Shown here piece by piece: positions 1 through 63,819 of a stretch of DNA of 64,000 bases (position 1 is its first letter; each line of letters begins with the position of its first letter). The DNA is from an uncultured virus (IMG/VR IMGVR_UViG_2860317346_000001) (Duplodnaviria; Heunggongvirae; Uroviricota; Caudoviricetes). The stretch is from IMG/VR virus record IMGVR_UViG_2860317346_000001, positions 1 to 64,000 of that record, one strand, 5' to 3'. The position numbers were made by a program, and so were the translations under genes. A model generated the notes under the pieces. That model had not been told where the DNA came from. It was given only the letters and a program-made list of their open reading frames with translations, and did not search any database.

Positions 1-537
1 ATGAAAGACCTCTGCGATGTATACGACGAAATGCGAAAACAGGTTATAGTTGCGCGTAATATCGTCATTTTACTAGGATTCAAGAACAGAACACTAAAAC
101 AACATAATTACAAATTGATACCAAACGCAGCAAACCACGCAATTCGATCATACTCTTACATACAACCGAACAGTATTGCAGCTAAAGGTAAAAGTTTTGA
201 GGTTTGTTCGATTCTATCAAAACTTAAATTCGTGGAACCTAGAACGATAAGGTTAGACGAACCTGCGCTTTTACCTAAAACTTGTTTCGTATTCGATAGC
301 ATATTATACAAGCCAGATACGAATGAATTTTTGTTTGTAAACATGAATGAAGGTTCACGGGATTATACAGTATCTGTTAATCGAACTTCAAACTTCTTAC
401 TTGAAAACGTACCAGAATCGATTGATGATGTCGTTAAAGAAATATACAACGAATATGTGGAATGTAACGCCCACAACGCCAAGATAGTCGATGAACTTCA
501 TACGTACGCGAAATTACAAAAATTAGATAAGGTGTAA
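1..537 (+). CDS. Hypothetical protein, paralog family A (possibly 5'-truncated by the window)
   Basis: Shares IQPN..GKSFEVCSIL, (F/Y)D.I and C-terminal KLDKV motifs with the ORFs at 1246, 2576 and 4098. Confidence 0.8.
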   Translation: MKDLCDVYDEMRKQVIVARNIVILLGFKNRTLKQHNYKLIPNAANHAIRSYSYIQPNSIAAKGKSFEVCSILSKLKFVEPRTIRLDEPALLPKTCFVFDSILYKPDTNEFLFVNMNEGSRDYTVSVNRTSNFLLENVPESIDDVVKEIYNEYVECNAHNAKIVDELHTYAKLQKLDKV

Positions 538-539: not shown

Positions 540-1253
540 ATGGTTACACTTGACGATTTAAACGATATGTGGTCAAATGGCGTTTATAATAACTTACGTG
601 AATACGAATTACATCATATCGTTAAATTAGACAAGGATGTCGAGATTACGGCACGTAATGGTACTCTTATAAAATTCAATACGTTCGTAGTTGATAATAC
701 TAAATTTAAAGCGATTAATTCGTCGTACATTAAGTATAACAACGCTGGGTTTGATTACGCGACATTACTAACCGCATATCCTGAATACACGGACTTAGTG
801 TATGACTTATTTCAGGTTATTCTAAAAAGTAAAAGCGATGATGGGTTACACCTAGTAGATACATACGCTAACGATGAAATAAAGCGTATAATGGGTTTTG
901 TCGATAAAGTTAATAAAACCGAAAAGTTAGTTCGTGCAGCAGACGTTTTAAATAACGAATGGAAATTCAAGCATCTTATCGCGAACGACGATGGTAAAAT
1001 AACGTTAAACGAATTATGGGGTAAGTTTTCATATTATACCCTGGACGTTATCAACCAATACAAAGAAAACATACGACCGTATCTCATTTTCGGTAAAACG
1101 TACACGTACACGGTTATGCACAAATACAGGCGTGGAGACGTAAGTACTTACAATGTCGCTTACCACGCTATCGACGACGATTTAGATTGGCTTATGAGTG
1201 AGTATAATCGTGTATCGGCTTTACTTACACAAAAGGTGATTACGATTGATTGA
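540..1253 (+). CDS. Hypothetical protein
   Basis: 237-aa ORF; AAGGTG RBS within the end of the previous gene. Confidence 0.75.
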   Translation: MVTLDDLNDMWSNGVYNNLREYELHHIVKLDKDVEITARNGTLIKFNTFVVDNTKFKAINSSYIKYNNAGFDYATLLTAYPEYTDLVYDLFQVILKSKSDDGLHLVDTYANDEIKRIMGFVDKVNKTEKLVRAADVLNNEWKFKHLIANDDGKITLNELWGKFSYYTLDVINQYKENIRPYLIFGKTYTYTVMHKYRRGDVSTYNVAYHAIDDDLDWLMSEYNRVSALLTQKVITID

Positions 1254-21277: not shown

Positions 21278-21296
21278 GCGAATATAACATACATAA

Positions 21297-21861: not shown

Positions 21862-21921
21862 TCTGAAAAAACGAATTTCGTATCATCATTTTTGACACAT
21901 TTTCGGTGAAACGTAACAAAC

Positions 21922-22375: not shown

Positions 22376-22661
22376 AGTAAATATTGATAAGTGGGCGTAT
22401 TTGTAACGGAATAAGTGTTTCCAATATTACCACAATCGTAGGTAGTATATAAACCTTAACTATTTTTTCGTACCTAAACGTAAAAACTTGTTAATGCCGT
22501 TATAATTACAACATTATATCTATACACTTGAATGTATCGTTATTATGACGCGAAATTCAAAACGTAATAAATAATATGCGCAAACAGCCGCGGGTCCAGA
22601 AAAAACGTAACAACGTATATAATGAATCTACGAATGTTTCGATTATAAGGTGAATCGTAAT

Positions 22662-30485: not shown

Positions 30486-30803
30486 ATGCAAGTATTCATG
30501 GGCGAAGGAAGACCAACAGCTGACCCAGTTAAGGGTGAAAACGGAAAACCTACAACATTCACAATCGCAATAAACAGGTCTTACAAAGACAAAAACACCA
30601 ACAAATACGAAGCCGATTTCTTTGAAGTTGTAGCTTTCGGTGAACTCGGTGCCCTCATCGCGAATTTAGCTAAAAAGGGTAAAATGTGTTCCGTTATCGG
30701 TGAAGTTCACAATGACAGGTGGACCGATAAACAAACCGGTGCGCCAAGACAAACCACAAAAATTTATGCGAATAAGTTTTTGTTACTCGATAGGAGTGAA
30801 TAA
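30486..30803 (+). CDS. ssb: Single-stranded DNA-binding protein, bacterial type
   Basis: GRPTADP, FTIAINR, ADFFEVVAFG, KKG..V.G, W.DK..G. Confidence 0.88.
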   Translation: MQVFMGEGRPTADPVKGENGKPTTFTIAINRSYKDKNTNKYEADFFEVVAFGELGALIANLAKKGKMCSVIGEVHNDRWTDKQTGAPRQTTKIYANKFLLLDRSE

Positions 30804-30804
30804 C

Positions 30805-31599
30805 TTGAAACCGACCGTAATAGTTTTATTCGGTAAATCGGGTTCTGGTAAATCATCGGTTGAGAAAAAATTATGTGAGGAATACGACTTTCACAAGTGT
30901 ATATCACATACAACAAGACCGATAAGACCCGGTGAAGTAGATGGTGTAGATTACCATTTTGTCGATAAATCCATATTCGAAAACCACAACGATTACATCG
31001 AAGTAACCTCGTACAACGGTAATGTGTACGGTTTACACAAATCCGAAATTAAGTCCGATAAAATCAATGTTGTCGTGATGGAACCTAACGGTGTACAGCA
31101 AATCACCAACAATTCGAATTACAATGTAATAAAAGTTATGATACAAGTTGATGATGCGATTGTAATCGATAGAATGCGATTACGTGGTGATAATGACGAC
31201 GATATCTTTAAAAGACTTAAAGTTGACGCCGAAACGTTTAAAGATGCCGAAGCGTTAGCCGATTTCGTCATAGTTAACCATAAATGTAAAAAGACATGTA
31301 ATAGTATAAAGCGTATCATTAATGGTGGCACGTTAGACATGCTATCATTTGGTGATGCGCTAAACCTTGTACAAACAGGCATACCTGTTATGAGAAACAG
31401 TTGGGATAACCAATACCTGTATACGGTTCCGGCAAACTGTTATCCAGCTCAAACAGATTTAGCAAAACAAGAATTCGGTGACATAGTTCCATACGAACCG
31501 TACATAGCGGTAAAAACTACTAAAGGTACAGTATCGATTTGGGCACCAACACAAGAAGATATGTTTGCGAAAGATTGGGTTGAAGCTGAGGTAATATAA
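30805..31599 (+). CDS. gmk: Guanylate kinase fused to a C-terminal Tad2-like (DUF2829) domain
   Basis: GKSGSGKS, SHTTRPIRPGEVDGVDYHFV, YNGNVYG; then SFGDAL...R.SW...PYIAVKT..G....WAPTQEDMFAKDW. Confidence 0.85.
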   Translation: MKPTVIVLFGKSGSGKSSVEKKLCEEYDFHKCISHTTRPIRPGEVDGVDYHFVDKSIFENHNDYIEVTSYNGNVYGLHKSEIKSDKINVVVMEPNGVQQITNNSNYNVIKVMIQVDDAIVIDRMRLRGDNDDDIFKRLKVDAETFKDAEALADFVIVNHKCKKTCNSIKRIINGGTLDMLSFGDALNLVQTGIPVMRNSWDNQYLYTVPANCYPAQTDLAKQEFGDIVPYEPYIAVKTTKGTVSIWAPTQEDMFAKDWVEAEVI

Positions 31600-33159: not shown

Positions 33160-36100
33160 TTATTGATGGTTCTTTTCGATGAAAGAAACCGTACATGTCT
33201 GTTTCGAATATACTTTCAAGTGTGTGAACAAACAATCACCATAGAGTTGGATAGTTGTTAGTTCAGTAAACGTGTCATCCGCTGAAAGTTTAAGTTCGTT
33301 ATCCACATAGACCTGAAGGTTACCTGTGAAGTCGAGTGTTATCCGCTTTCTTTCGGACGTTAGGAACACATCACTAATCGTAGCGTAAAGTGAATCACCA
33401 TTATAAACCGTTAAATCACTATTTTCTTGTTTTAATTTAATGTTACCAACCACAGCTATCGTTGTAGCCTCATTAACTTCAACGACAACATCAACTATTT
33501 TACCATCACAAGTTAAGGTCCGTTCAATGTAACCACTTATAACATTAACACCACGACCGTATGGTCCTATCTTAATGTTAGCATTAGACGCTGACCAGTT
33601 ATTTGATAGTGTACCGACAGCATTAGTTAGTATCGTATCGTCGGATTGTGCGTTAGAACTTTTTACTAAATATATTTCTTTAGTGGCGTTTGCGCCAATA
33701 TCCAGTATTGTATACACCGAACCTGTACTATTAATATACACTTTATTAGATGCGCACGGTACATATGGTACAAATTCTTCACCTTCAGGTATATCTTCGA
33801 GTGTAGTTGTAACGTATAGATTTGTTGTATTATCGGCTAATCCTAATTTAGAAACATTTAATTCAACCGGATAATTCGTTAATTCATCTTCACTGTATAT
33901 TGTGAATTTTAACGTATTTTCGTCGATTACTTCAATTCCTGTAACAACCGGTTCGTTTGTAACTTTAGGTTCATAATAAAGTTCACCGGTTTCAAACGCG
34001 AAATCTAGTATATTTGTGTCTGATTCGTAAGGTAGCACAATCGGTATTGTGTCACACCCCGTATTAATCGGTGTTATATTTTTATTAACGATACCTGTTG
34101 TGTAATCCGCGATACGGGTGAATATATGTTCACCGTTTTCACCAACTAATACTAAAGTCGAATATGTGGTATTCGTGGTACCTGCTGAAAAAAACATATC
34201 CACTACGTTATACGGAATGTCAACTTTCGTAAACGTTGTGTATTTTATGTTATCTGGTAGTAACGTAAACCTGTATATACCTGAATTATCACCAGACGAA
34301 TATACGTCACCATTGCTGTCTAATACAAAAGACCCGAAAGTATATGTTAGAATTTTAATGGCACCGCTTAAGGTTATAGGTGTTGGATTCGTAACGATTT
34401 CAGTATCACCAGTTCCAAATTGACCATAATAGTTATTACCGCATACATAAATCGTATCATTTGATTTATAAGTCAAAGTATTCGTGGTTTCAGCTTTAAA
34501 GTCTTCGACTTCATTATAATTTATTGAAAGTTGTGTAGGTATCAACATGGGGTTCGCCGACCCTTCACCTAAACCCGTTTGACACGCGTTATTCGAGCCA
34601 CATGCGTAAATATCACCGTTGTTTAAAACGAAATAACTAGTTGAATTATCCAAATTCGCTATAATTTTACTAACATTCATTAAATCTAACTTTGTTACAG
34701 TTGTAACGGGTGTTGTGTTGTGACCTAACCCCAATTGACCATAATAATTATAGCCACAAGCGTACACATCACCATTGGACTGTATAAAATGACACAATAA
34801 AGCTGACGTGTTATTAATATCAACAACGTCGGACACAGCACATAATGTTGGTATTTCGTATTGTATTTCACCACCATTTACACCTAATTGACCATAATTA
34901 TTATAGCCACAAGCGTACACGTTACCATCATTTAAAAGTATGTACGTACAGTTATAATTTAACCAACACCGGTTCACGTTCGATAAATTAAGTTTAACGG
35001 GTGTATATCTATCCACGGTGTCACCTAAGCCAAGCTGACCACGTAGGTTGTTACCGCATATATAAACATCACCGTTATTCAATACAAACGCAGTATGGTT
35101 GGCTGTGGCAGCTATACTTTTTACATCAGATACGTTTTCATTTTTAACCCACGTTGTCACGACCGCATTATGACCTAAGCCAAGCTGACCATGTGAGTTG
35201 CAGCCATAACAATATACATCACCGTTATCATCTAAATAAAAAACATCAAATCCTGTCCGTGTAATTTTAGATTCATCGTAATCCCAAGCTGCGATATGGG
35301 GCTCAATTTGGTACCCATACATGTATAATCTCAGATAGCCATACAATTCAATTTTGTTATTCGTTACAAACGCGACACCATAATCGTGTGCGTATATATT
35401 TGTGTAATCGGCTAATGGTAATGTTATAGGTACAGGTGTATTTTGGGCTTTAATTCCGGTAGCGTCACATAGATAAGCATATTTACCACAAACGTAATCA
35501 CCGTTACTTTCTGATAAAAACAAAGTGTACATGGAATTACCAACGATTTTATCGACACTGCTTAGTACCAAAGTCGGTGATAATACAGTTGCGTTATCAA
35601 TACCATGTGTATAACTGGTCGTACCACCGAATGTATATACATCACCGTTAGTTAATAGACATATAAAACCGGTAAACACCACGACAACATCTGCGATATT
35701 CGTAATACTTATTTTCGTTGGTGTGTTTCTGGAAGTATAATCACCTAACCCCAACTGACCACATTGATTAGTCCCACATGTGTATACGTCACCATTAATT
35801 AATGTAAATAAAGTGACCCCACCTAACGCGTATACATCGTCAACGTCGGATAAGCTTGTAACTTTAGTTAATATAGTTCGGTTTGTATTGTCACCCAACC
35901 CAAGCTGACCGGATTGGTTATCACCATATACATAAACGTCACCGTTTTCTAGTAATATCGTGATATGTATGCCACGGTTATAATCGGTATACGTTTGTAT
36001 ATATTGTCCACCGACACAAACCTTTTTAATGCTATCTGGTAAAGTCGATGTATCAATTTTTACTGGCGTATATAATTCAACGCCGACACCGAGGGTGTTG

Positions 36101-36483
36101 TAATAATCGTACCCACATACGTATACGTCGCCATTTTCTAATAAAAATGCCGTTATTATGTTACCCGGACACGCGTATATTTGTTTAACGTTGGTTAATG
36201 GGTGTTTCACGTAATGTGTTACATCGGTGATATCACCTAACCCCAATCTACCATAACGGTTGTATCCGCGGCAGTAAACATCACCATTTGTAAGTAATAC
36301 AAAATTGTCAACGATATCAGCAATTTCATAAGGTGTATCGATATCAAAAGATGCATAAACGTTAGTAGCGTCGGATAATTCCGAGCCACCAACTTGAACG
36401 TACACTTCATTTTCACCAGCATTTAATGTAGGAGCGAGTACGTGAGCGTTATCTTTTGATTCCGCCCAATATTCTAAAGTCAT
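33160..36483 (-). CDS. RCC1-repeat tail fibre/adhesin protein
   Basis: About 14 repeats of L.NGDVY.CG.N.YGQLGLG, flanked by DUF2341-like segments. Confidence 0.9.
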   Translation of the reverse strand: MTLEYWAESKDNAHVLAPTLNAGENEVYVQVGGSELSDATNVYASFDIDTPYEIADIVDNFVLLTNGDVYCRGYNRYGRLGLGDITDVTHYVKHPLTNVKQIYACPGNIITAFLLENGDVYVCGYDYYNTLGVGVELYTPVKIDTSTLPDSIKKVCVGGQYIQTYTDYNRGIHITILLENGDVYVYGDNQSGQLGLGDNTNRTILTKVTSLSDVDDVYALGGVTLFTLINGDVYTCGTNQCGQLGLGDYTSRNTPTKISITNIADVVVVFTGFICLLTNGDVYTFGGTTSYTHGIDNATVLSPTLVLSSVDKIVGNSMYTLFLSESNGDYVCGKYAYLCDATGIKAQNTPVPITLPLADYTNIYAHDYGVAFVTNNKIELYGYLRLYMYGYQIEPHIAAWDYDESKITRTGFDVFYLDDNGDVYCYGCNSHGQLGLGHNAVVTTWVKNENVSDVKSIAATANHTAFVLNNGDVYICGNNLRGQLGLGDTVDRYTPVKLNLSNVNRCWLNYNCTYILLNDGNVYACGYNNYGQLGVNGGEIQYEIPTLCAVSDVVDINNTSALLCHFIQSNGDVYACGYNYYGQLGLGHNTTPVTTVTKLDLMNVSKIIANLDNSTSYFVLNNGDIYACGSNNACQTGLGEGSANPMLIPTQLSINYNEVEDFKAETTNTLTYKSNDTIYVCGNNYYGQFGTGDTEIVTNPTPITLSGAIKILTYTFGSFVLDSNGDVYSSGDNSGIYRFTLLPDNIKYTTFTKVDIPYNVVDMFFSAGTTNTTYSTLVLVGENGEHIFTRIADYTTGIVNKNITPINTGCDTIPIVLPYESDTNILDFAFETGELYYEPKVTNEPVVTGIEVIDENTLKFTIYSEDELTNYPVELNVSKLGLADNTTNLYVTTTLEDIPEGEEFVPYVPCASNKVYINSTGSVYTILDIGANATKEIYLVKSSNAQSDDTILTNAVGTLSNNWSASNANIKIGPYGRGVNVISGYIERTLTCDGKIVDVVVEVNEATTIAVVGNIKLKQENSDLTVYNGDSLYATISDVFLTSERKRITLDFTGNLQVYVDNELKLSADDTFTELTTIQLYGDCLFTHLKVYSKQTCTVSFIEKNHQ

Positions 36484-39400
36484 TTAAATCACATCCGTTA
36501 TTTTGATACTCGTGTTTTCAGTTACTACACCAAATACTGAACTGTTGATATATACGTTACCGTCAATATCAGAACCTGTATCGTTCGTCAAAATAACTTT
36601 AAACGTTCCATCACCGTAATTAATCACTGTTGGTGTAAGTTCAACACCTTCAGGAATTACACTTGTAATGGATTCAATCAATAAGCTATCATCCGCACTG
36701 ATTAACCCCAAATCACTAACATCAAGTGCAATCTGGTAATTTTCGATCGAACATTCGCCGATTGTAAACGAATTTCCAGTTTTTGAAACACTTGGTGGAG
36801 TTTCGAGATATTTTCGAATAAACCAATAATCAATGTATTGAGCTGAATCATTTTCACCCATTATACCTAAATATAATTGTTTAGGCGAAACCGGCACATG
36901 ATTTGTTTTTTCGAGTAAATGAACACCATCTTTATAAAAATCTACGGTTGAGCTTTTCATATCAAACCTATAAGTGTGATAATCATCTTCGAAGGTACCA
37001 CCAATATCAATTAACTCAAATGTACCATCAGATTTTGTTAAAACCGAATTTACAGCATCCGAATGTCCAAATAATATATAATCTGTGTTTGTAGGCTCCA
37101 GTAATCCGATATATTCAGCATAAGACGTACCTGTGTGTGCACCTTTCATGCGACCCTCTAAGATTACATTCTCTAAGGTTATTGGTGTATTCGAATGTAA
37201 ATAACATTTACCGCCTATGGTGTTTGTTGCAGCTAATATACCGTCAGCTACATTTATCGTTAAACCCGTGTTTGTATACTTAGTCAGATCATCAAATGAA
37301 TCATCAAAATCTTCGAAAACCGATACACCGTCAGGGCTATGACCTTCGGTAACATTAACATTGATAACTTCGTTACCATCGGCTATGGTCCACAGCGTCT
37401 GTAAATCTGGTGTAATCCAGTAAGGTTTAACGCTTGATATAGGTGTGTTTGTACATTTATACCCAAGTTTGTTGAAATCAAATAGTATTTGTTTTGATTG
37501 ACCAACTGGAATATTGAGTTTAACACCAACCGAATCTTCAGTTACGATATAGTTTCTTTTCAATTCCGGTGGTACAACACGGGTTATTTGTAATGAATCA
37601 CTATCAACTTCACCAAGACGTATCCAACCATCCTTAGTTGTGTTGTCATTGGTTACAGTATATACGGTATATACATAATCATTGTTATCCATAGATACAG
37701 ACATACTTGTGTACACATCACCAGTAGCAACACTAGGTACGTAACCACTTGTCATACACACATAGTAGTCCACCGTGTCCATTGGTTCAAGTATATCATT
37801 GACATACAGTACACCATTTTCAACCGTATACTCTAACACTTCCGTCAGTGTATCGGGTACATTCTTACACACTTTGAGGTTTTCACCGTTGAACGTTAAT
37901 CCTGTGTCGACCTGCATTTCTGTAATCGTCTCAGGGCACGTTATAGTCATAACATAACCTTCGACATAACGCTTGAGTGTGTATGTGAGTTCATTTTCTG
38001 TGAATTTAGTTGCCGTAGTGACGCTATTAATTTCAGAGGGTGATAATTCTCTATCAAAAACATACGCATCGCCAAGTCTACCACCGAAACCTTGTCCGAT
38101 GTAGTTTAAAAGTAAACCACTTAGCGCAACTGAGTTTTCACATGATAACAATGAACCATCAACGTAAACAGACGTGGACGTACCGCTAGTTATAGCAATC
38201 TTATACCATTTTTCGGTTTCGAACGTGTAAGGTGTTGTGTATATATTTGAATTGTAACTTATCGTAACGTTACCATCATCGTTTAAATTCATAACATCGG
38301 GAATTACTACGGCGGTTTCATTTGAATCCATGTAAACGTCGAATATTAAAGTAGATGCTTCGGGTAATGTAATCCCTGTGTGAATATAACCAGTACCATT
38401 AAACGCCCAAGCTCGGTTCGGTCGACCGAACCTATCGGTAGCAAAATGTACATCGTATAAACTAGGTTTTACGAAACCGTACGTGTCGGCCATACCGTTT
38501 GGTGTTACCGCAAACTGTAACGTTGCGTATTCATCGCTTGTAATTACAGTTGTAGGTTCGTTTACAAAACGTTTAATCGTAGTATCCGTGGCTAACCCGT
38601 CGTATACTTTAAAGTTGGACACTTCACCGTTTAGATAGTATGCATCACTATCATAACGTGAACCTAATCTAATCTGGTTAGACAAAGTTACATTAGAGTT
38701 ATCACTCGTTGTACCACATGAAACGCCGTTTACGATTAACTCAATAAATCCACCTTTCTTGTAGCGAACTGTAACTTGGTTTTTTTCACCGAGGTATACG
38801 TAATTAGACATAACATAGACAGTTCGTAACCCATCGTACAACATAGCATAGATTCTTTTGTAAAGGTACACGACGTTCAATACGTTATTAGCACCATCCC
38901 CACATGACATGATAGGTTTGAAATCGTCCATAGCATTTAATTTTACATCCATCGAAAATGTGTGTTCGTTTTTATTTTCAAAATCCATTTCAACGTAAGA
39001 CGTTCCAGTGAAAACGAACGAATTACCATAATCATTATAATTTACACTCACACCGTTATACGCGGTATAATTTTTGTCTTCACAGTTAATTGTGAATCGT
39101 GACAGTAAACCATCATTTATTATATTTTTATCAACCATGAAAACGTTCATATACGCAGTTGGAGCTACAGTATCGACTTCATTCGTTATAAAAAATGTAT
39201 TTGTAAGCTCCTTGTAGATATCGGCTTTAAACCATACACTATCGGAATATGTATACGGTACCCGTTCAATGAACATTTCCGGGTCATAATCGGTTAATAT
39301 ATCGAAAGCGTCACCGACGACATCATCAACTTTAATGATAGCATCTTCTATATCGAAAAGATTATCGTTACTCACAGTTACTTTGTAAGCGTTATCATCA

Positions 39401-40584
39401 ATTTTCTCGACGGTACATGGTAATAGCTGTAAATTGGGTGTAAAATCATCACACATATCAAATATAGACGTGTTTCCAATTACATCAAAATTGGTGTTAC
39501 CAAATTTAACCATACACGTTACCGGTTCGGATGTATCGAGGTCTATCCAAATTCGAGTTGAAACGGTGCCCACTGTATCAGGTTCAACGTAACAAGAACA
39601 GTTTGTAATAACATCATCGTTCGAATCAACCAACGCTACAACGATATCGCTGCCGTCAGCTTTCATCATACCAGATGTAACGTAATCGGTGGTGTCTAAT
39701 ATTATACACACAGGACCGGATACCGTCGTGTCTGGTGTTATATCAAATTTAATGAAATACTTCAAGTCGTCTCCTGGGGTGGTAATCAATTTCGATACAA
39801 CGTCTACGGTTTGTGTCGTATAAGGTGCACGTTTTTGAACAAATACACCTAACCCGGCGATTTCAGCGTTAACATCGTCGTTAGCAGCGTAACCATTTGT
39901 TGATTCAACGATGACAACGTCGTTAATGTCTAGTGTACTTGTATCAACGTATAATTTACCGTACATGGTTTTCCATGGTAATTTTACGTTGGGTGCTTTA
40001 GCCGGATATATATTCAGTTTATTTGTAGGTAAAACATCATCGTTTAATACGTAGGTTATAGCCCCACTAGCTCTGAATGCCGTTACGATGTTATCTGGAT
40101 TCCCAAATATAACGTAGAAGTTTTTAACCTCACCCAAATCCATTTCAGCTTTGATACCGATAGTAATTTCACCGAAATATTCGTTACCATCGTAGTACCA
40201 ATCGTAGATGGTTCCGTTAGCATCAATCACAAACATATCATTAAGTTTACTGTGTAGTAGATGTTTTGACATTGGAATTACTGTGTTTACGGTCAGACTG
40301 ATATCCACATCCGTATATGCTGAACCGTTATAAACCGCATAAATCAAACCACTACTGTAAATGTCACTCAAAGGATTAATGCGCCACACATAATCGGTTA
40401 AATCGTAAATATTTTTGGCTATTTCGTAATCGAGACCACCACTAAAATTTATATTGGTGACATTGGCTCCGTGTTTATCATGATTGACATCGAAACCGTT
40501 ACCAAACACAATGTTCCGAACTAAACGTTCGGAACCATTCGAATCAATTAATTTTATATATCCAGTTTTCATGTTAAGCACCAA
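36484..40584 (-). CDS. Large tail/adhesin protein with DUF2341 and LamG/concanavalin-like domains
   Basis: MKADGSDI...RIWI...FGN; DRFGRPNRAWAFNG; YLNGEVSNFKVYD; FDRELSPSEI; start probably ATG 40572. Confidence 0.82.
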   Translation of the reverse strand: MVLNMKTGYIKLIDSNGSERLVRNIVFGNGFDVNHDKHGANVTNINFSGGLDYEIAKNIYDLTDYVWRINPLSDIYSSGLIYAVYNGSAYTDVDISLTVNTVIPMSKHLLHSKLNDMFVIDANGTIYDWYYDGNEYFGEITIGIKAEMDLGEVKNFYVIFGNPDNIVTAFRASGAITYVLNDDVLPTNKLNIYPAKAPNVKLPWKTMYGKLYVDTSTLDINDVVIVESTNGYAANDDVNAEIAGLGVFVQKRAPYTTQTVDVVSKLITTPGDDLKYFIKFDITPDTTVSGPVCIILDTTDYVTSGMMKADGSDIVVALVDSNDDVITNCSCYVEPDTVGTVSTRIWIDLDTSEPVTCMVKFGNTNFDVIGNTSIFDMCDDFTPNLQLLPCTVEKIDDNAYKVTVSNDNLFDIEDAIIKVDDVVGDAFDILTDYDPEMFIERVPYTYSDSVWFKADIYKELTNTFFITNEVDTVAPTAYMNVFMVDKNIINDGLLSRFTINCEDKNYTAYNGVSVNYNDYGNSFVFTGTSYVEMDFENKNEHTFSMDVKLNAMDDFKPIMSCGDGANNVLNVVYLYKRIYAMLYDGLRTVYVMSNYVYLGEKNQVTVRYKKGGFIELIVNGVSCGTTSDNSNVTLSNQIRLGSRYDSDAYYLNGEVSNFKVYDGLATDTTIKRFVNEPTTVITSDEYATLQFAVTPNGMADTYGFVKPSLYDVHFATDRFGRPNRAWAFNGTGYIHTGITLPEASTLIFDVYMDSNETAVVIPDVMNLNDDGNVTISYNSNIYTTPYTFETEKWYKIAITSGTSTSVYVDGSLLSCENSVALSGLLLNYIGQGFGGRLGDAYVFDRELSPSEINSVTTATKFTENELTYTLKRYVEGYVMTITCPETITEMQVDTGLTFNGENLKVCKNVPDTLTEVLEYTVENGVLYVNDILEPMDTVDYYVCMTSGYVPSVATGDVYTSMSVSMDNNDYVYTVYTVTNDNTTKDGWIRLGEVDSDSLQITRVVPPELKRNYIVTEDSVGVKLNIPVGQSKQILFDFNKLGYKCTNTPISSVKPYWITPDLQTLWTIADGNEVINVNVTEGHSPDGVSVFEDFDDSFDDLTKYTNTGLTINVADGILAATNTIGGKCYLHSNTPITLENVILEGRMKGAHTGTSYAEYIGLLEPTNTDYILFGHSDAVNSVLTKSDGTFELIDIGGTFEDDYHTYRFDMKSSTVDFYKDGVHLLEKTNHVPVSPKQLYLGIMGENDSAQYIDYWFIRKYLETPPSVSKTGNSFTIGECSIENYQIALDVSDLGLISADDSLLIESITSVIPEGVELTPTVINYGDGTFKVILTNDTGSDIDGNVYINSSVFGVVTENTSIKITDVI

Positions 40585-55386: not shown

Positions 55387-55745
55387 TCATCCCAGAATTA
55401 ATATTTGCAATACTACTCGTATTTTCATTATCGAATGACGCCGTTAAACTTGTAACGGCTGTTATACTGTTATTGTTATATTTCAATCTTATACGAAAGT
55501 TTACAACTAAAGCAAAGAAATTTACTCTGGTTATATCGGTGTTTGTATCGATTTTATCCATAATAATGCTAATGCTTTCAATAACTACACTTAATGGTAG
55601 TATAATCGGCGATATATGTTTCGCATATACCCTCATACAGTATTATCCACTCGCTATAGCGGATATTAGTAGATTAACGAAGAATTTACCAACTTTAATC
55701 AAACTTTACAAAGGAGTCATACAATGGGTAACGACAAAGAAATAG
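55380..55745 (+). CDS. Membrane protein
   Basis: Three to four hydrophobic helices. Confidence 0.65.
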   Translation: MLIIPELIFAILLVFSLSNDAVKLVTAVILLLLYFNLIRKFTTKAKKFTLVISVFVSILSIIMLMLSITTLNGSIIGDICFAYTLIQYYPLAIADISRLTKNLPTLIKLYKGVIQWVTTKK

Positions 55746-56998
55746 CACTATTTCATGATAGAATAGCTAAAGATATGGGAATCGTTTCGTCAAGAAATGC
55801 CGTAAATATGATATTTACGTCACTTGGTGGACACTACATGAATCTATTACAGAAAACAAGCGATGCTGTTAATCCTGTACGTAAAAACGGGTCAATTGTT
55901 GATACGAGGAAACACCTTATGTTCATCAGGCCACCAGGGTTTGGTAAGACCATGATGTTAAAAGGTTTACTTTATGATGTGTTACCTGAAGAAACTAAAT
56001 ACACCTCTCACCCCGATACCGGTAACAGAATCGAAACATCGACGTTTCAGAACATTTTAACCGAAGCAGGGTTTACCGGTACAGTAAGAGGTAACGGAAA
56101 TATGGTTGAAAACGTAGAAGGTATCGCAGCAAGATGTAACCGTGGTTTTGTTGTCGTTGAGGAGTTTTCTGCTATTTTGGAATCATTTTCACAGACACAC
56201 TCATCGAATTTCGAACAAGCGTTATTAATGGCACTTGATAGTGGTAGAGTTACAAAATCATTAGCAAACGGTACAATATCATATGATACTAATTTAACAT
56301 TAGCTGCAGGTATTCAACCTACAAAAATGGTTGATGCGTCATCAGGTCTTATGAGAAGATTCTTAGTTGAATACTGTATTCCGTCAGCCGAAGCAAGTAA
56401 AAATATTGTAGCCGCTTCAAGAAACGCATGGTTGGAACAGGATAAAAATGACAACGCAATGGATTTGAAACGAGATTTACAAGCTTATATCAAAACCGAA
56501 GTGATGAACCAAACATACAACTCGATAACATACGAGCATGATAAACTTTTCAAATTATTTGATACTTTTGGTATGCCAGCTGGAATTGAATCTGATATTT
56601 ACATGCAAGCAGCGATAGCATACAATTACTTCGTTGGAAACATCGAAGATAACACCATCGTTGTTAAATTAAACAAAGACCTCGAAAACATGCTTACGGT
56701 AGATTTCGTATCACGTTACTTGTTGTCGTTTAACATGCACGCTATCGTATTGCTGGTGATTTTGAAAAATATGCGCAACGAGGGTATCGCATCGATAAAA
56801 CTCGTTGATATCCTCGAAGCTTCGAACGCATATCAGATGAACTCACAACAAATAACCTACGCTTTGAAAAGTTTAGAAGATATGTCAATCATAACAAAGA
56901 TGAAAATTAAACAGAGTGACGTGTATTCGATTACAAATGACGTATTTTTTGATAAAATCGTCAATAGGTTAGACGCGATCCAAAAGGCGATGGTGTAA
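55724..56998 (+). CDS. MCM-like AAA+ helicase lacking the N-terminal domain
   Basis: PPGFGKT; TEAGFTG (cf. S.AGLT); G.AA.CNRGFVVVEEF (cf. GALVLAD.G...IDEF); ALDSG.VT; GLMRRF. Confidence 0.75.
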   Translation: MGNDKEIALFHDRIAKDMGIVSSRNAVNMIFTSLGGHYMNLLQKTSDAVNPVRKNGSIVDTRKHLMFIRPPGFGKTMMLKGLLYDVLPEETKYTSHPDTGNRIETSTFQNILTEAGFTGTVRGNGNMVENVEGIAARCNRGFVVVEEFSAILESFSQTHSSNFEQALLMALDSGRVTKSLANGTISYDTNLTLAAGIQPTKMVDASSGLMRRFLVEYCIPSAEASKNIVAASRNAWLEQDKNDNAMDLKRDLQAYIKTEVMNQTYNSITYEHDKLFKLFDTFGMPAGIESDIYMQAAIAYNYFVGNIEDNTIVVKLNKDLENMLTVDFVSRYLLSFNMHAIVLLVILKNMRNEGIASIKLVDILEASNAYQMNSQQITYALKSLEDMSIITKMKIKQSDVYSITNDVFFDKIVNRLDAIQKAMV

Positions 56999-58784: not shown

Positions 58785-59858
58785 GTGATTACAGATAAAG
58801 AAATAGAAAAGTTAGTAACAATCGAACCATTCAATAAACAAAACCTCGGACCGTCATCGTACGACCTGAGAATATCCGGTGCCCTCGTTAAGTATGTCAT
58901 CGATGTAAAACAGGGTGAAGCCTTATTGAAAGACGAAATACCAAAAGTGGAACATATAGCTTTCGAACGCGTTATGTTCTTACCACCGTGGTTTACAGAA
59001 GATGAGGTTGCCTTATACAAAGCTATACACCACGACAAAACTGTGGTACAAACTCCCGTACTTGGTGCATCTGAAGAAATTGTAACTCTACCGAAAAATA
59101 TCTGTGCATCATATACAGGTCGCAGCTCATGGGGTAGAAAATTTTTAGAATCACACATGACAGCAGGTTACGTTGATAACGGGTTTAGTGGAACTATAAC
59201 ATTTGAGATTATAGCACATATTCCTGTTGAAGTAGCCGCTGGTGACAGAATCGGACAACTTATTTTCCAGAAGACTAAAGTTCCGACCAAACATTATGGT
59301 GAAAAAGCTGACGCGAAATACCAAAATCAGATTTTACCAACACCATCACGTGCACACGAAGACCACGATTGTGGTACAACTGAATACATTTACGTCGACG
59401 GCTCAGTTGCAAAAAACCCCGGTGATTTCGGTATAGCTGGGATGTTATTTAGGGGCGTCGCGAACTGTTTTACTTACAGTGGTGAGGGCATAACAAATAA
59501 CATGATGGAAGTTTTAGCAATCAGACATGCGCTATTAAAAATAGAAGAACAGTTAATCGTAAACCCCAAAAAGCAATTCGTGATTATTTCAGACAGTTTA
59601 CTCGCAATAAACGGCACAACCGGAACGTATAATATCCGAGCAGAAAATCTGATACCATTGGTTGAAAAGAACGCTGAACTTTACGATAAGTTACAAGAAA
59701 ACGTTACAATTAAACACGTCAAAGGTCATTCTAAGGATGACATCATCGGTGACACCATCACAGCGTTATCCAAACAATATACGCAGACTGGAAGGTTGGT
59801 CCCTAATGAAAAATCAACCGTAATCATTGAATCGTCATTAACCGAGGTATACGCATGA
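58785..59858 (+). CDS. dcd: dCTP deaminase - RNase HI fusion
   Basis: PSSYDLR, GRSSWGR, AGYVDNGFSGTITFE, RIGQLIF, KYQNQ; then YVDGS..NPG, TNNMME, SDS, HVKGH. Confidence 0.9.
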   Translation: MITDKEIEKLVTIEPFNKQNLGPSSYDLRISGALVKYVIDVKQGEALLKDEIPKVEHIAFERVMFLPPWFTEDEVALYKAIHHDKTVVQTPVLGASEEIVTLPKNICASYTGRSSWGRKFLESHMTAGYVDNGFSGTITFEIIAHIPVEVAAGDRIGQLIFQKTKVPTKHYGEKADAKYQNQILPTPSRAHEDHDCGTTEYIYVDGSVAKNPGDFGIAGMLFRGVANCFTYSGEGITNNMMEVLAIRHALLKIEEQLIVNPKKQFVIISDSLLAINGTTGTYNIRAENLIPLVEKNAELYDKLQENVTIKHVKGHSKDDIIGDTITALSKQYTQTGRLVPNEKSTVIIESSLTEVYA

Positions 59859-60256
59859 TTAACAACGAAATATACATACTAGACGCGACAACCGATAGAA
59901 CCGGTATAACGGTCATTGAAGATAATTTGACATATAACGCACTGTTAAAGTATTTTATAAACAGTGAACAGTTTTTAACTGAGTTATTGACGGTTACATG
60001 TGTAAACTCCGATTTCGTAATAACTGATACCGAAAACCCGGATTTAATTGACGTTACATCGGACGTTAATGAATTATTGTTGCGAATGAATTTAGTAGAA
60101 ACGGATTGGTACGTTTACTCCAATTCTATGACTTTTAGAGAAGGTGATGTTGTTAGTGTACTAAAAGCTTTAGTACATTGTACTTACCTGTACTATATCT
60201 ACGGTTACATGACGACACTAGATGAAAATAAAACCTATATGATATGTAAGATGTGA
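59855..60256 (+). CDS. Hypothetical protein (N-terminus resembles family Y)
   Basis: INNEIYILD....G...IEDNL. Confidence 0.6.
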   Translation: MINNEIYILDATTDRTGITVIEDNLTYNALLKYFINSEQFLTELLTVTCVNSDFVITDTENPDLIDVTSDVNELLLRMNLVETDWYVYSNSMTFREGDVVSVLKALVHCTYLYYIYGYMTTLDENKTYMICKM

Positions 60257-61239
60257 TTAACGTGGAAAATGTCGACAGAAAAAAAGTATTAGGGTTATAC
60301 GGTGTGTTAGCACCGTACCACGGTTCGGGTGACACCGTTTATGTTCCAAAGTATATGAGAACTGTCGACGGAAAACCCGTTAAAAATGGTATGACCGCAA
60401 TTGTATGGCGCTACCCGGTCGTATCGAAAAATGCGGTTATTAAACTTACGTTACAGGTACATGATGAAAATGTCATACGTGTTCCAGTTAAATACATAAG
60501 TAGTCTCGATGGCGATTATGACGGCGATTGTGTCGCATGTATGGCTATCGATGATAATATCCCGTGGGTACATACAGATTATATTGTTAACAATTATTCA
60601 ACGTGTAATACGGATATAGATTTATCCCTATCCAAATTTAAATCATCGAAGCGTGCGGGTTCCTTCCTTGATGTTTTGCTAACCAGAAATACTGAAATGT
60701 GGACCGAATTATATGATGATGCGACTAACCGAGATATGTTAACTGATATGTTACCAAAATTACCTGGTGCCATATTTAAACATTTAATCGGTATGGGTGT
60801 GGGTAAATATCAAGTAATTAGTAATTATATTGTTTATAACCATGAAAATGAAACGGAAATCATAACTAACACGACAAACACTCTAAATGGAAAAACCGAT
60901 ATATGGGTATCGGCTGTTCATAACGTAATGGCCGAATTCTATAAACAAACATTAAACACCAAACACCCTAACGTTAAATCAGATTTACGTGATATGTACA
61001 AGTTTTATAATCTCGTATTCGGTGATATACCACGATGGTTTATAGATGAGACCGGAATCACCTACCCACTGGAAAAGGTTGAGGTGGCATACTTTTATGA
61101 TAAATTCTTCAACGGACCACAGAAATCCAATTTTGATGTAGTTTTACACGGGTTAAAAAATGCAAAAAACAAACAAATGTTATTCGAATCGACCAATAAC
61201 GAGCATATACACATCACCGTACCGACAGTTAATCGGTGA
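60253..61239 (+). CDS. Miniature RNA polymerase beta'/Rpo1-like catalytic subunit (DPBB-A)
   Basis: RKKV.G..GV.....VYVP, WRYP, LDGDYDGD; bridge-helix-like RDMLTD...K..G; trigger-loop-like QTLNTKH. Confidence 0.85.
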   Translation: MINVENVDRKKVLGLYGVLAPYHGSGDTVYVPKYMRTVDGKPVKNGMTAIVWRYPVVSKNAVIKLTLQVHDENVIRVPVKYISSLDGDYDGDCVACMAIDDNIPWVHTDYIVNNYSTCNTDIDLSLSKFKSSKRAGSFLDVLLTRNTEMWTELYDDATNRDMLTDMLPKLPGAIFKHLIGMGVGKYQVISNYIVYNHENETEIITNTTNTLNGKTDIWVSAVHNVMAEFYKQTLNTKHPNVKSDLRDMYKFYNLVFGDIPRWFIDETGITYPLEKVEVAYFYDKFFNGPQKSNFDVVLHGLKNAKNKQMLFESTNNEHIHITVPTVNR

Positions 61240-62008
61240 AAAATCATTTAACGCATCAATAGGTACGGATTCTATACCAAAACGATACCATTTACGTAAT
61301 GGGGCTAAAGCGAAAACATGGTTTCGTGGTGGTCTAAATGTTGAAGGTTATACGTATAAAGTAGCCATATGTAATCACAACTTGACCGTGGAAGATTCCT
61401 ACGTATTCACTAAAAAAGCAGCGGATGTCCCTGAAATCAAATTTAATGTTCACTTTAATGAAGACGACACGCGTAAACCAAAAGAGATTTACAGAAACGA
61501 TAACGCGAAATTAGTTACAGGTGGTATTGACGTTGATGGTGTGAAAAGCTTGGAGGTTGGTGATAAAATATCTAACCTTCACGGACAGAAGGGTACAATC
61601 ACAAACATCATTCCAGATAGACGTTTCAAGGTGGAACCCTGTGTATTCGAATCCGATACACTAGAAACTATAGAAACGAAAATGAAAACTATCGACGTGT
61701 TAATGAATTATGATTCAATTATCTCACGTGGCGCGTTTGGTATTTTCTGTGAGTTAGGTTACGCTACGGCTAAACGTGCACCAAATGTAACTTCTGAATT
61801 TTTACCGGTTGAAAGTGGTTATCTTATCGATAGTGAAACCGATACAAAACACGCGGCCTTATTTGGTAAACTTCATTTCATGGTATTAGACAAAATGTCA
61901 AGGTTTATAATGAATCGGTTTGCCACAATTGATTACATGACAAGATACGCCATGTACGCTAACACTGGAAGTGATTGCCTTTGGACGGATTTACCTTATC
62001 AGATATAA
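61160..62008 (+). CDS. Miniature RNA polymerase beta/Rpo2-like subunit (DPBB-B)
   Basis: G....VAI....VEDSYV, VGDKISNLHGQKGTI, DVLMN..SIISR...G...E, FG...FM.L.KM; start codon uncertain. Confidence 0.88.
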   Translation: MQKTNKCYSNRPITSIYTSPYRQLIGEKSFNASIGTDSIPKRYHLRNGAKAKTWFRGGLNVEGYTYKVAICNHNLTVEDSYVFTKKAADVPEIKFNVHFNEDDTRKPKEIYRNDNAKLVTGGIDVDGVKSLEVGDKISNLHGQKGTITNIIPDRRFKVEPCVFESDTLETIETKMKTIDVLMNYDSIISRGAFGIFCELGYATAKRAPNVTSEFLPVESGYLIDSETDTKHAALFGKLHFMVLDKMSRFIMNRFATIDYMTRYAMYANTGSDCLWTDLPYQI

Positions 62009-62010
62009 TT

Positions 62011-62640
62011 ATGCAGCAACCGAAATTATTAGAAAGTACCGGGGCTGCTCTAAATACACTTAGGTTGTTGTGTAACGGAATGGCACCCGTTATACGAATA
62101 AATGGGCCGGTTACCTTCGTCGACATATACGGTGATACGTATGATGTATCTACGGAAAACGTAACGAATCGGTTCGAACCTATTACATTTTACGACGAAG
62201 AAACTAACGTTAGGTTTCGAGGTAGTATGATATACCAGATTCTTGACGCTGAAATAAATTATGATTTTATTCCTGTTAACACTGTTAATTATTCAAACGA
62301 TGTTTTTTATATAAACGGCGAAATCAAAACACTAGCCGATATACTGTGTAATTATTCGTCACCGGACGTAATCAATGCGTTACCACGGTTTGACCATAAA
62401 AAAATAATATACAACTTTGATGACCGGCAATATATCGGTTATAATGCGGTAGATAAAATAATAGACGACGTTGAGTATAGAAACCATACGTTATCACCTT
62501 GTGATAACGGTTATGTTGTGGGACGGCAAAAATATCCGTTTTCAATGTTTCATAGTTACGACACGAATACGTTCGTTAATGATGTATTGGGTGTGGATAT
62601 AGCTCCAGTTTCAAATAAACTGTCATTGCTATACTCATAA
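62011..62640 (+). CDS. Hypothetical protein directly downstream of the RNAP genes
   Basis: ATG 62011, 2 nt after the previous stop. Confidence 0.7.
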   Translation: MQQPKLLESTGAALNTLRLLCNGMAPVIRINGPVTFVDIYGDTYDVSTENVTNRFEPITFYDEETNVRFRGSMIYQILDAEINYDFIPVNTVNYSNDVFYINGEIKTLADILCNYSSPDVINALPRFDHKKIIYNFDDRQYIGYNAVDKIIDDVEYRNHTLSPCDNGYVVGRQKYPFSMFHSYDTNTFVNDVLGVDIAPVSNKLSLLYS

Positions 62641-63198: not shown

Positions 63199-63819
63199 TT
63201 GGTGATGATTATGTTAGGTAAAATGAAAAACGGTGTCTATGTTCCTGTGTCCGAAAATGGGCCCGAAAATAGATTACAATGCCCCGCGTGTGGTAAGGTA
63301 TTGTTAACCGGTGGGTGTGATTGTACAGCGTACACCGGCGTCAAAATTGACAGCGACCACATACTGAAAATTGAAGAAATTATACAAATCTTGCGAGCTT
63401 CTGGTTATCACCCAGCAAAATTCGGTTTACAAGGTAAACACAAATTCCATTATTCCGATATCATGGTTAAACATGATACACCAGGTTTTCAAAATTCGAT
63501 AACATTGATAAATGAAGAACCACCGATAGAGGAACTTAGGAAGCGAACTTTCGCACTATCTATGGTGAAAATGTTCGTGGGTTATATCGTAGATTACGAT
63601 GCTATTGATGTATCGAAGTCTGAAGCGGTCGATTTTATCGTTGAACATTACGGGTACGTAACTGTTTACAGTAAACGTCGACTATATAACTATTATCCAA
63701 AAACCGATACTTTTATACCGTTAAATCATGTTAATTTGCGGACAGTTACGTCCGATAAAATGAAAAATCAAACATATTATAAGGTATGTAAACTGGAGCC
63801 TAAAGAGGATGTAAAATGA
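63199..63819 (+). CDS. Zn-ribbon-containing hypothetical protein
   Basis: CPACG...CDC; start probably ATG 63211 after GGTGA. Confidence 0.7.
   Translation: MVMIMLGKMKNGVYVPVSENGPENRLQCPACGKVLLTGGCDCTAYTGVKIDSDHILKIEEIIQILRASGYHPAKFGLQGKHKFHYSDIMVKHDTPGFQNSITLINEEPPIEELRKRTFALSMVKMFVGYIVDYDAIDVSKSEAVDFIVEHYGYVTVYSKRRLYNYYPKTDTFIPLNHVNLRTVTSDKMKNQTYYKVCKLEPKEDVK

Follow-up and report, generated by a model that had tools for sequence, protein, structure and literature searches.

The cellular RNA polymerases (RNAPs), with their large subunits Rpo1/Rpo2, Rpb1/Rpb2, or beta'/beta, belong to the two-barrel polymerases, for which Ruprich-Robert and Thuriaux list eight invariant residues, namely, R446, P448, and D481/D483/D485 of Rpb1 and D837, K979, and K987 of Rpb2 (PMC2919709). 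The same account associates a Glu in front of the catalytic Asp (Rpb2 D837) with the DNA-dependent two-barrel enzymes and places switch 2 at Rpb1 residues 327-351, K332 included (PMC2919709), and the sandwich-barrel-hybrid is described as the flap insert in the beta barrel of cellular-type RNAPs (PMC7824862). Among viral enzymes, gp96 of Thermus phage P23-45 is reported as a 5002-residue tape measure protein with a virion RNAP at its N-terminus and a metallopeptidase domain; gp96 and the non-virion gp64 are both single chains in which a connector leads from one double-psi beta-barrel (DPBB-B) to the other (DPBB-A), and a published dendrogram assigns them to a divergent single-subunit clade (PMC10770324). 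Here, we describe two overlapping open reading frames (ORFs), ORF1 and ORF2 (the mini pair), that appear to encode a much smaller two-barrel enzyme and that lie in a 64,000-nucleotide stretch of DNA (the window), positions 1 to 64,000 of IMG/VR record IMGVR_UViG_2860317346_000001, from an uncultured tailed virus.

Reviews (PMC5569661, PMC9501531) and an Asgard-virus preprint present archaeal viruses as a group in which no known member encodes an RNAP, and a preliminary description of the present DNA had held that characterized archaeal viruses rely on the host RNAP. We propose, with moderate confidence, that ORF1 and ORF2 specify the barrel subunits of a drastically reduced, non-virion DNA-dependent RNAP in a large tailed virus whose host would probably be an archaeon.

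Results

Catalytic residues and predicted folds of the ORF1 and ORF2 products

ORF1 (60253..61239, plus strand; GTG start, 328 aa) encodes a beta'/Rpo1-like protein with a predicted DPBB-A, in which D88-x-D90-x-D92 would bind Mg, and a helical C-terminal part. ORF2 (61160..62008, plus strand; ATG start, 282 aa) encodes a beta/Rpo2-like protein resembling a stripped-down "domain 6" with DPBB-B and two putative catalytic lysines. The two ORFs total ~610 aa and occupy different frames with the beta'-type barrel first, an order shared by the relative and the paralogous pair described below. All eight invariants are found in them, as R53, P55, D88, D90, and D92 of ORF1 and D79, K136, and K144 of ORF2, and alignments of the homologs (seven ORF1-type and four ORF2-type sequences) keep these residues in 7/7 and 4/4 cases, respectively, except at R53 (R in four, K in three); ORF2 has, beyond the eight, a funnel arginine, R190. 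The preliminary description had picked out RYP and LDGDYDGD in the 328-aa ORF and VEDSYV, GDK..HGQKG, DVLMN..SIISR, and FG...L.KM in the 282-aa ORF and had matched them, in the same motif order, to beta'/Rpo1 and beta/Rpo2; every one of these motifs is present, and profiles, folds, and conserved invariants agree with that assignment. Judged from their sequences, the two proteins are true homologs of the beta'/Rpo1 and beta/Rpo2 barrels, with an active site that appears intact.

In ORF1, R53-Y54-P55 (60409..60417, plus strand; context W-R53-Y-P55) is the equivalent of Rpb1 R446/P448, and L85-D-G-D88-Y-D90-G-D92 (60505..60528, plus strand) is a metal-binding loop of the NADFDGD type, as read from ORF1 and from the seven-sequence alignment. 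P55, D88, D90, G91, and D92 are invariant in 7/7 sequences, and at position 53 a basic residue is retained without the Arg being invariant (R in 4/7, K in 3/7). The loop reads (D/N)ADIDGD in the six other homologs, nearer to the canonical form than the LDGDYDGD of the window. A profile of the seven homologs found three PDB sequences, and 3/3 were the DPBB of the plant Pol V largest subunit (best E 3.3e-5), with D88/D90/D92 aligned onto its metal loop; a PHROGs search of ORF1 gave no match. Structure models were built from the same alignments of seven (ORF1) and four (ORF2) sequences. With the AlphaFold2 model of ORF1, the Foldseek matches listed were largest RNAP subunits throughout (best 2.2e-6), with 7s01_d, the non-virion beta' chain of AR9, among them, and VIA-align placed ORF1 residues 5..108 on yeast Rpb1 339..503 (Z 13.4, root mean square deviation [rmsd] 2.5 A, 100-101 residues aligned). 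Since this alignment begins at Rpb1 339, ORF1 would start inside switch 2, without the clamp N-terminus; ORF1 residue 5 aligns at Rpb1 339 and a basic residue, R9, is near, but the alignment gave no residue-level match to Rpb1 K332.

Beyond the barrel, ORF1 residues 157-180 (60721..60792, plus strand) make up the candidate bridge helix of the preliminary description, a predicted 24-residue helix with a predicted local distance difference test (pLDDT) score of ~40 whose conserved columns in the seven-sequence alignment are R160, D165, G172, and K176; the invariant proline P168 within it calls for caution. Its candidate trigger-loop motif, likewise from the preliminary description, L234..K237-H238-P239-N240 (60952..60972, plus strand), is invariant in 7/7 ORF1 homologs, as is K133, a candidate for the funnel motif of the largest subunit (Rpb1 G750, K752) in a region of pLDDT <50 with no profile match.

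The motifs of ORF2 follow the order of the second-largest subunit. E78-D79 (61391..61396, plus strand; context V-E78-D79-S-Y-V) is equivalent to Rpb2 E836/D837, with D79 invariant in 4/4 homologs and position 78 occupied by E in two (the window included), H in one, and N in one. The basic loop G134-D-K136-ISNLHGQ-K144-G, GDKISNLHGQKG (61559..61594, plus strand), is equivalent to Rpb2 K979/K987; G134-K136 and N139-G145 are invariant in 4/4, and K136 and K144 stand eight residues apart. D179-VLMNYDSIIS-R190 (61694..61729, plus strand) is the funnel-motif equivalent, ending at the counterpart of Rpb2 R1020, as indicated by motif order and the VIA-align range; D179, L181, M182, S186, and R190 are invariant in 4/4 homologs, and R190 falls within the aligned range 43..245, its residue-level equivalence to R1020 being by motif order. 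A further motif is F235-GKLHFMVLDKM, FGKLHFMVLDKM.

Profile and fold comparisons of ORF2 point to the same family. Pfam RNA_pol_Rpb2_6 (PF00562) matched above its curated cut-off (E 1.2e-5, 25.1 versus 23.4 bits), and PHROGs assigned ORF2 to phrog_3295, "RNA polymerase beta subunit" (6.2e-6). The four-homolog profile gave 18 matches at E<=1 among PDB sequences, all of them second-largest RNAP subunits matched at GDK..KG, and aligned the K136/K144 loop onto Thermus beta and Pol IV/V subunit 2 (GDK..HG.KG). The AlphaFold2 model (mean pLDDT 52.6, predicted template modeling score 0.54, barrel up to ~90) found second-largest RNAP subunits in 50/50 of the Foldseek matches listed (best 1.1e-7), and VIA-align placed residues 43..245 on E. 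coli beta 690..1237 (Z 11.7, rmsd 4.4 A, 179 aligned) and the protein also on yeast Rpb2 782..1097 (Z 10.9). Among viral models, the top 29 named matches were RNAP second subunits of eukaryotic large DNA viruses, the best being those of pitho-, pox-, asco-, mimi-, nudi-, and baculoviruses (best 1.5e-7), and jumbo-phage beta-like models matched weakly (E ~1e-2 to 1e-3). The fold check suggested in the preliminary description yielded, for both barrels and among the matches listed, RNAP large subunits only (Foldseek and VIA-align), from models of moderate quality.

The spacing within ORF2 bears on how much has been lost. From D79 to K136 there are 57 residues, modeled with three short strands, where the published numbering gives 142 residues between D837 and K979 of yeast Rpb2 (PMC2919709). 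With 57 residues in the place where cellular enzymes have the flap or wall, a full flap would not fit, and at most a stub can be expected. No match to the families of the clamp N-terminus, lobes, or protrusion (Pfam, PHROGs) was found in the genome ORFs scanned, among which unannotated ORFs could still supply such parts. The proposal that clamp, lobe, and flap are lacking thus stands for the clamp N-terminus and the lobes, and of the flap a remnant, a stub at most, may persist.

ORF1 and ORF2 overlap by 80 bases (61160..61239, plus strand), and the conserved frame of the overlap is that of ORF2 (R11-P-x-T..T18-S-P-Y-R-Q..G26), with R11, P12, T14, T18-Q23, and G26 invariant in 4/4 ORF2 homologs. 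In the ORF1 frame, by contrast, the six other homologs have nothing that corresponds to the tail of the protein (residues ~302-328). The ATG at 61160 is the sole start that retains the R-P-x-T...T-S-P-Y-R-Q motif. Because this motif is conserved in the ORF2 frame and the ORF1 tail there is not, we place the ORF2 start at 61160, and the 206-aa database version of ORF2 (P0002) is a short gene call.

Homologs, operon, and a related virus

The mini-polymerase family is very rare. An indexed search with ORF1 returned only the window's own protein (1 match among 663 candidates), which is also recorded on a 207-kb contig, and the same search with ORF2 returned two relatives (52% and 48% identity). 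Exhaustive phmmer comparison of ORF1 with 1.84 billion representatives gave ORF1 itself and P0005 (E 2.7e-18, 32%), and a profile search enlarged the ORF1 family to seven proteins. A nucleotide search of a phage collection gave no match. Viral contigs scanned with ORF2 alone yielded only a giant-virus RPB2 at 27%, scanned with the ORF2 alignment they yielded none, and scanned with an ORF3 alignment they yielded only the relative described next; prokaryote genomes scanned with the ORF1 alignment or with NrdD gave none. A metagenome scan returned three loci (L009, L010, and L011), all matching over residues 133-204 only (34-38%), and the last of these comes from another virus, whose beta/beta' pair is larger and of conventional type. 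On that 75-kb metagenome contig (L011:4471-7978, plus strand), a conventional phage-type beta gene of 740 aa (GDKISNLHAAKG) is followed by a beta' N-half of 441 aa (AGDFDGD), the usual order of beta then beta', in contrast to the mini pair.

In the window, ORF1 and ORF2 are part of a tight operon, ORF0-ORF1-ORF2-ORF3, with overlaps of 4, 80, and 34 bases. Directly before it lies a 357-aa dCTP deaminase-RNase H fusion (58785..59858, plus strand; DCD 3.1e-23, RNase_H 1.2e-12). ORF0 (59855..60256, plus strand; 133 aa) gave no family in Pfam or PHROGs, and there is a 4-base overlap between its stop and the start of ORF1. ORF3 (61975..62640, plus strand; 221 aa) overlaps the end of ORF2 by 34 bases and gave no family in Pfam or PHROGs and no usable protein-atlas match. 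ORF5 (63199..63819, plus strand; 206 aa) has a CxxC..C zinc-ribbon-like N-terminus and only subthreshold Pfam matches.

A search of IMG/VR for syntenic homologs, as the preliminary description had advised, found one related record with the same gene block (G001; 141,059 bases, direct terminal repeats, 100% complete), in which 36/136 ORFs match proteins of the window's genome (G000) at 1e-5. Its gene order is dCTP deaminase, RNase H, a 171-aa ORF, and the homologs of ORF1, ORF2, and ORF3, followed by an opposite-strand membrane protein, a zinc-ribbon protein, an ERCC4 nuclease, NrdD, and NrdG. The dCTP deaminase and RNase H are two adjacent genes there (L008:8191-8859 and 8888-9493). ORF0 is barely alignable with its positional counterpart (25% identity, partial), and ORF5 shares 21% identity with its own, C28, C31, and C40 being conserved; a polymerase role for ORF5 would be speculative. 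ORF3 has a full-length counterpart (L008:11608-12279; 35% identity, BLASTP E 1e-16, identity range 32-35%). The overlap of ORF3 with ORF2, together with its adjacency and its conservation in the relative, is typical of a complex partner, and ORF3 is probably a third subunit, perhaps one for template or promoter handling.

The order ORF1-ORF2-ORF3 and the overlapping junctions are kept in the relative at 29-40% identity, which argues for purifying selection. This bears on whether the mini pair might be a decaying or catalytically dead paralog, either kept for a noncatalytic role or on its way to being lost, as could be suspected from its place as the smallest of three polymerase sets in the genome (see below) and from its tiny sequence family. 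Both frames are open, however, the catalytic residues persist in homologs sharing no more than 24-52% identity, and gene order and overlaps are retained in a second genome, so we consider such decay very improbable. Motif erosion in homologs had been named as a warning sign, and the homologs retain their catalytic residues; the conservation of the eight invariants and the funnel arginine excludes eroded pseudogene relics.

Two further polymerase sets in the genome

Outside the window, the genome encodes two more two-barrel sets, so the mini pair is one of three polymerase sets in this virus. The first is a giant ORF of 5748 aa (genome 85470-102716, L002:1470-18716, minus strand) with R-Y-P...NADFDGD at residues ~323-383; PF00623 matched it over the cut-off (E 1.6e-5), its best PDB matches were archaeal Rpo1N, and its C-terminal part matches a phage peptidase family. 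Its counterpart in G001 has 6956-6961 aa (L012). Comparison with the gp96 fragment 8h2n_A gave a weak match at the metal loop (E 0.14). By analogy with P23-45 gp96, the giant protein is probably a virion RNA polymerase fused to a tape measure protein. In hhalign comparisons, the ORF2 profile had no match in its first 800 residues, and the ORF1 profile aligned at the metal loop only, with 5% probability.

The second set is a pair on the plus strand, in which a 549-aa protein with R-H-P...EGDFDGD (L004:6885-8534; PF00623 E 2.1e-6, over the cut-off) is followed by a 362-aa protein with G-V-K-MIGYDAQ-K-G (L004:8557-9645). The 362-aa protein aligned with the ORF2 profile over 247 columns (hhalign probability 95.8%, E 6.6e-9), and the 549-aa protein aligned with ORF1 around the barrel only (probability 41-59%). 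G001 has the equivalent pair, of 459 aa (GGDFDGD; 131636-133015) and then 376 aa (133012-134142). In the window's genome, the second pair sits near the beginning of a long plus-strand block of small genes, among the first genes after a 1.8-kb noncoding switch region at 123-124.8 kb. The beta'-type barrel comes first, or near the N-terminus, in all three sets.

These genes are relevant to a different reading, in which ORF1 and ORF2 would be pieces of a split RNAP of the jumbo-bacteriophage type (phiKZ/AR9), with the other beta/beta' fragments encoded elsewhere. The match of ORF2 to phrog_3295, the appearance of AR9 7s01_d among the listed ORF1 fold matches, and the existence of other RNAP-like genes are what such a reading would predict. 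Each of the other sets, however, carries its own barrels, which makes the three sets paralogs and not complementary fragments, and the ORFs scanned gave barrel-bearing RNAP proteins only, with no beta-N or beta'-C fragment family (Pfam, PHROGs). Jumbo-phage models matched ORF2 only at 1e-2 to 1e-3, versus 1e-7 for eukaryotic-virus and cellular subunits, and the intron-bearing tRNA described below points to an archaeal host. For the preliminary description, a bacteriophage genome with a known split RNAP would have refuted its proposal; the full genome instead holds self-contained paralogs, and we regard the split-enzyme explanation as the least probable of those weighed here.

The paralogs also bear on subunit number. 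In the strict reading of the preliminary description, the mini pair would be a self-sufficient enzyme of exactly two subunits and ~610 aa, complete with bridge helix and trigger loop. The 549+362 pair shares only the two catalytic genes with the mini locus, with no counterpart of ORF0, ORF3, or ORF5 beside it (hhalign of these three against seven proteins of the paralogous locus gave probabilities of <=3% over 21 comparisons), so that two subunits may be the ancestral functional unit, and a predicted 24-residue helix and a conserved K-H-P occur where the bridge helix and trigger loop have been proposed. The adjacency of ORF3, its 34-base overlap with ORF2, and its 32-35% identity to the gene of the relative speak against a bare two-subunit enzyme, as do the invariant proline in the helix and the lack of profile or confident-model support for bridge helix and trigger loop; we therefore hold strict two-subunit self-sufficiency to be unlikely.

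Virus genome and probable host

The virus record that opens with the window spans 174,953 bases (38% GC) and is labeled "provirus" in IMG/VR, with a CheckV completeness estimate of 84%. The virus is a tailed one, with a large terminase (phrog_2, 8.7e-15), a family-B DNA polymerase (PolB), and NrdD/NrdG, together with genes for a DNA ligase, a thymidylate synthase, and an Hjc-type resolvase and a tRNA cluster.

The preliminary suggestion of an archaeal virus gains probability from one of these tRNAs. The ARAGORN intron search identified a tRNA-Tyr(GTA) with a 192-base intron (genome 142062-142326, L005:4062-4326, plus strand). The minimum-energy fold of the precursor leads from the anticodon stem (5 bp) through a 3'-strand bulge of 3 bases and a 4-bp helix to a 5'-strand bulge of 3 bases and, last, a 14-bp helix. 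This predicted fold is a canonical bulge-helix-bulge substrate of the archaeal/eukaryal splicing endonuclease, and removal of the intron, which lies at 37/38, would restore an ordinary loop of seven bases with the anticodon GUA. To our knowledge, bacteria lack a bulge-helix-bulge splicing endonuclease, and terminase-bearing tailed viruses infect only bacteria and archaea. Taken together, the intron, the lack of the splicing enzyme in bacteria, and the limitation of tailed viruses to these two groups indicate that the host is very likely an archaeon.

Other features hint in the same direction. NrdD is by far nearest to that of Methanobacterium virus PhiF1 (32%, E 5e-94), with other phage NrdD proteins at <=28%. 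A 209-aa protein (L004:17816-18445, plus strand) has a C-terminal histone fold of the archaeal/eukaryal type (CBFD_NFYB_HMF, 6e-14), Hjc and a TrmB-type domain are present in the genome, and an ERCC4 nuclease is present in G001. GGTGA, which we take to be a ribosome-binding word linked to archaea, occurs <=20 bases upstream of 36/172 predicted starts versus 3.3 expected and is likely the ribosome-binding motif, and AGGAGG precedes 1/172 starts. In the interval 56.5-64 kb, sigma-70-like sites were at chance (31 versus 31.1), and intrinsic terminators numbered 6 versus 5.3. Neutral or contrary to an archaeal host are the terminase, nearest to those of Streptomyces phages (25%), and PolB, equally distant (24-27%) from cyanophages and haloviruses.

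Further observations concern the same genome. A second tRNA (L005:4480-4615, plus strand; Rfam 44 bits) carries 60 additional bases within its anticodon loop, and its ARAGORN call, "Leu(tag)," comes without the long variable arm. Noncoding gaps of 1.6-2.6 kb lie at genome 123048-124854, 135734-137321, and 140074-142663 and at window 21018-22649; the gap at 123-124.8 kb divides a minus-strand structural block from a plus-strand block and is a possible site of an origin or of early promoters, and that at 140-142.7 kb contains the tRNA cluster. On the minus strand, window 33160-40584 encodes probable tail or fiber proteins of 1107 aa (RCC1 repeats) and 1366 aa (laminin-G/concanavalin-like domain), with Kelch-repeat and DUF2341 proteins nearby. 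One gene (window 30700-31599, plus strand) joins a guanylate kinase to a Tad2-like domain (Thoeris anti-defense 2), and a conserved protein of 424/457 aa (window 55724-56998; L008:6039-7412) has a weak Mg-chelatase-type AAA+ match and may be an MCM-like helicase. A nicotinamide phosphoribosyltransferase extends over two adjacent ORFs (L005:9592-10467 and L005:10489-11100, plus strand), the first with the N-terminal domain and the catalytic start and the second with the rest, an arrangement for which a frameshift, an intron, or a true split is possible.

Discussion

In the enzyme proposed here, ORF1 would contribute switch 2, the DxDxD barrel in which the catalytic Mg ions are held, and a C-terminal part predicted to be helical, and ORF2 would contribute the second barrel, with an Asp helping to hold the second metal and two lysines contacting the RNA 3' end and the incoming nucleoside triphosphate (NTP). 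The active site would lie at the interface of the ORF1 and ORF2 barrels, as homology predicts and as is the case in every two-barrel polymerase. The enzyme would have no clamp N-terminus, lobes, or protrusion and at most a stub of a flap, and it would polymerize NTPs as a heterodimer or, with ORF3, as a trimer. Because its genes lie apart from those for structural proteins, and because the virion enzyme is likely to be the giant protein, we consider the mini enzyme to be non-virion. A role in transcription is the one that we favor, albeit with only moderate confidence, within a cascade in which the giant protein would act first, as in P23-45, followed by the 549+362 pair and then by the mini polymerase, which lies in the replication module and would transcribe a later gene class.

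Several results weigh against this proposal. The Pfam RNA_pol_Rpb1_2 match of ORF1 is weak (E 0.052, 14.2 bits versus a cut-off of 25.3), and the best E of the ORF2 profile against PDB sequences is only 0.01. The ORF1 model has a mean pLDDT of 42.6 (residues 14-100 at 55-75), with residues 103-328 at <50 and no family profile match, and both models are weak overall, with moderate confidence in the barrels only. The k-mer enrichment analysis of 82 upstream regions gave no convincing promoter motif. Two other polymerase sets are present, so a transcription role is not forced on the mini pair, and the operon lies in a replication/nucleotide module of a genome with no primase family found, a setting that would fit priming equally.

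Alternatively, then, the mini pair may be an RNA primase or an origin-transcribing polymerase that primes the viral PolB, with the genes being transcribed by the giant protein, the 549+362 pair, and/or the host RNAP. Its operon is embedded in the replication/nucleotide module, with the RNase H-dCTP deaminase fusion two genes upstream, AAA+ ATPases and a PD-(D/E)XK nuclease also upstream, and NrdD, NrdG, and PolB downstream. PF09250 (Prim-Pol), PF01896 (AEP small subunit), and PF13155 (Toprim_2) gave nothing at E<=1 in G000 or G001, with positive controls, and PolB, ligase, RNase H, and AAA+ ATPases are present despite the lack of a matched primase domain. Low processivity would be expected of a clamp-less enzyme, and the two other sets could cover transcription. 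Against priming, we know of no two-barrel enzyme that acts as a primase, although no search was directed at this specifically. Phage non-virion RNAP genes are often found among early or replication genes anyway, and the many ORFs that remain unannotated (most of those scanned had no family) could include a primase too divergent to be recognized. Furthermore, the mini pair keeps the switch-2 region (ORF1) and the funnel arginine (ORF2), which have been tied to transcription of double-stranded DNA (PMC2919709). On balance, priming seems to us an unlikely primary role, albeit an alternative to be taken seriously. The more specific form of this proposal, a dedicated two-barrel RNA primase or origin-priming polymerase of the PolB replisome in an archaeal virus lineage with three two-barrel polymerases, perhaps independent of the host RNAP, is slightly less likely still. 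If true, it would connect transcription-type enzymes with replication at the level of function, just as PolD does for DNA synthesis, and this lineage may do without the host RNAP.

The transcription reading, too, would have consequences for archaeal virology. No RNAP-encoding archaeal virus was reported in the literature searched, although the mini family may be listed among the 23 RNAP families of PMC10770324, and two 2026 archaeal-virus surveys mention no viral DNA-dependent RNAP in the passages searched. As far as sequence can tell, the two-barrel RNAP occurs in the mini pair in a new and extremely reduced form, and the virus probably represents the first polymerase-encoding archaeal virus lineage, with three such systems; if the host assignment holds, the no-RNAP rule of archaeal viruses is broken three times. 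In addition, no two-barrel polymerase core known to us would be smaller than this pair. With cellular-type motifs and little beyond the two barrels, it offers a natural test of the minimal machine for templated RNA synthesis, bears on models in which the large subunits grew by accretion around the barrels, and would provide a compact, expressible enzyme for structural work.

Compared with known systems, the mini pair is closest in its catalytic design to the cellular RNAPs (Rpo1/Rpo2, Rpb1/Rpb2, beta'/beta), with which it shares barrels on two polypeptides, the metal loop, R-x-P, E-D, GDK..HGQKG, the funnel arginine, and the motif order. It differs from them in size, the two large cellular subunits having >2300 aa by the figure of the preliminary description, ~4 times its ~610 aa; in having no counterpart of Rpb1 1-338 or beta 1-689; and in its gene order, with the beta'-like gene preceding the beta-like gene. 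The "minimal active site" enzymes of baculoviruses and nudiviruses, LEF-9/LEF-8, are likewise Rpb1/Rpb2 cut down to barrels, switch 2, and funnel (PMC2919709). Subunits of both virus groups occur among the fold matches of ORF2, but in the matched models they have ~850-1260 aa, and they belong to insect viruses.

The jumbo-phage RNAPs (phiKZ, AR9/PBS2) resemble the present system in being virus encoded, in having no alpha or omega, in forming paralogous virion and non-virion sets, and in having beta and beta' cut up (PMC7598289, PMC7824862). As described there, however, they keep beta-N, beta'-C, and the flap insert in 4-5 subunits, parts that were not found in the ORFs scanned here, and their beta-like models are much less similar to ORF2 than are the cellular-type subunits. 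P23-45 offers a parallel at the level of the whole genome, with a giant protein (5748 versus 5002 aa) that combines a DFDGD site and a peptidase and with separate non-virion two-barrel enzymes. The difference, as far as P23-45 has been described, is that the non-virion enzymes here are encoded by two genes each, with the opposite barrel order and cellular-type motifs. Profiles of ORF1 and ORF2 searched against PDB sequences gave no match to P23-45 gp64.

Finally, YonO and QDE-1 are, like the mini pair, small, clamp-poor two-barrel enzymes of mobile elements. They are not among the ORF1 and ORF2 fold matches listed, although similarity is still possible. YonO has ~770 aa, so the mini pair would be the smaller of the two. 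In YonO and QDE-1, both barrels reside in one chain, no Glu is reported to precede the catalytic Asp (PMC2919709), and the cellular-type GDK..HGQKG is missing. The single-subunit type as a whole (YonO, QDE-1, crAss gp66, and P23-45 gp64) is a single polypeptide with the beta-type barrel first, and the mini pair shares neither of these features.

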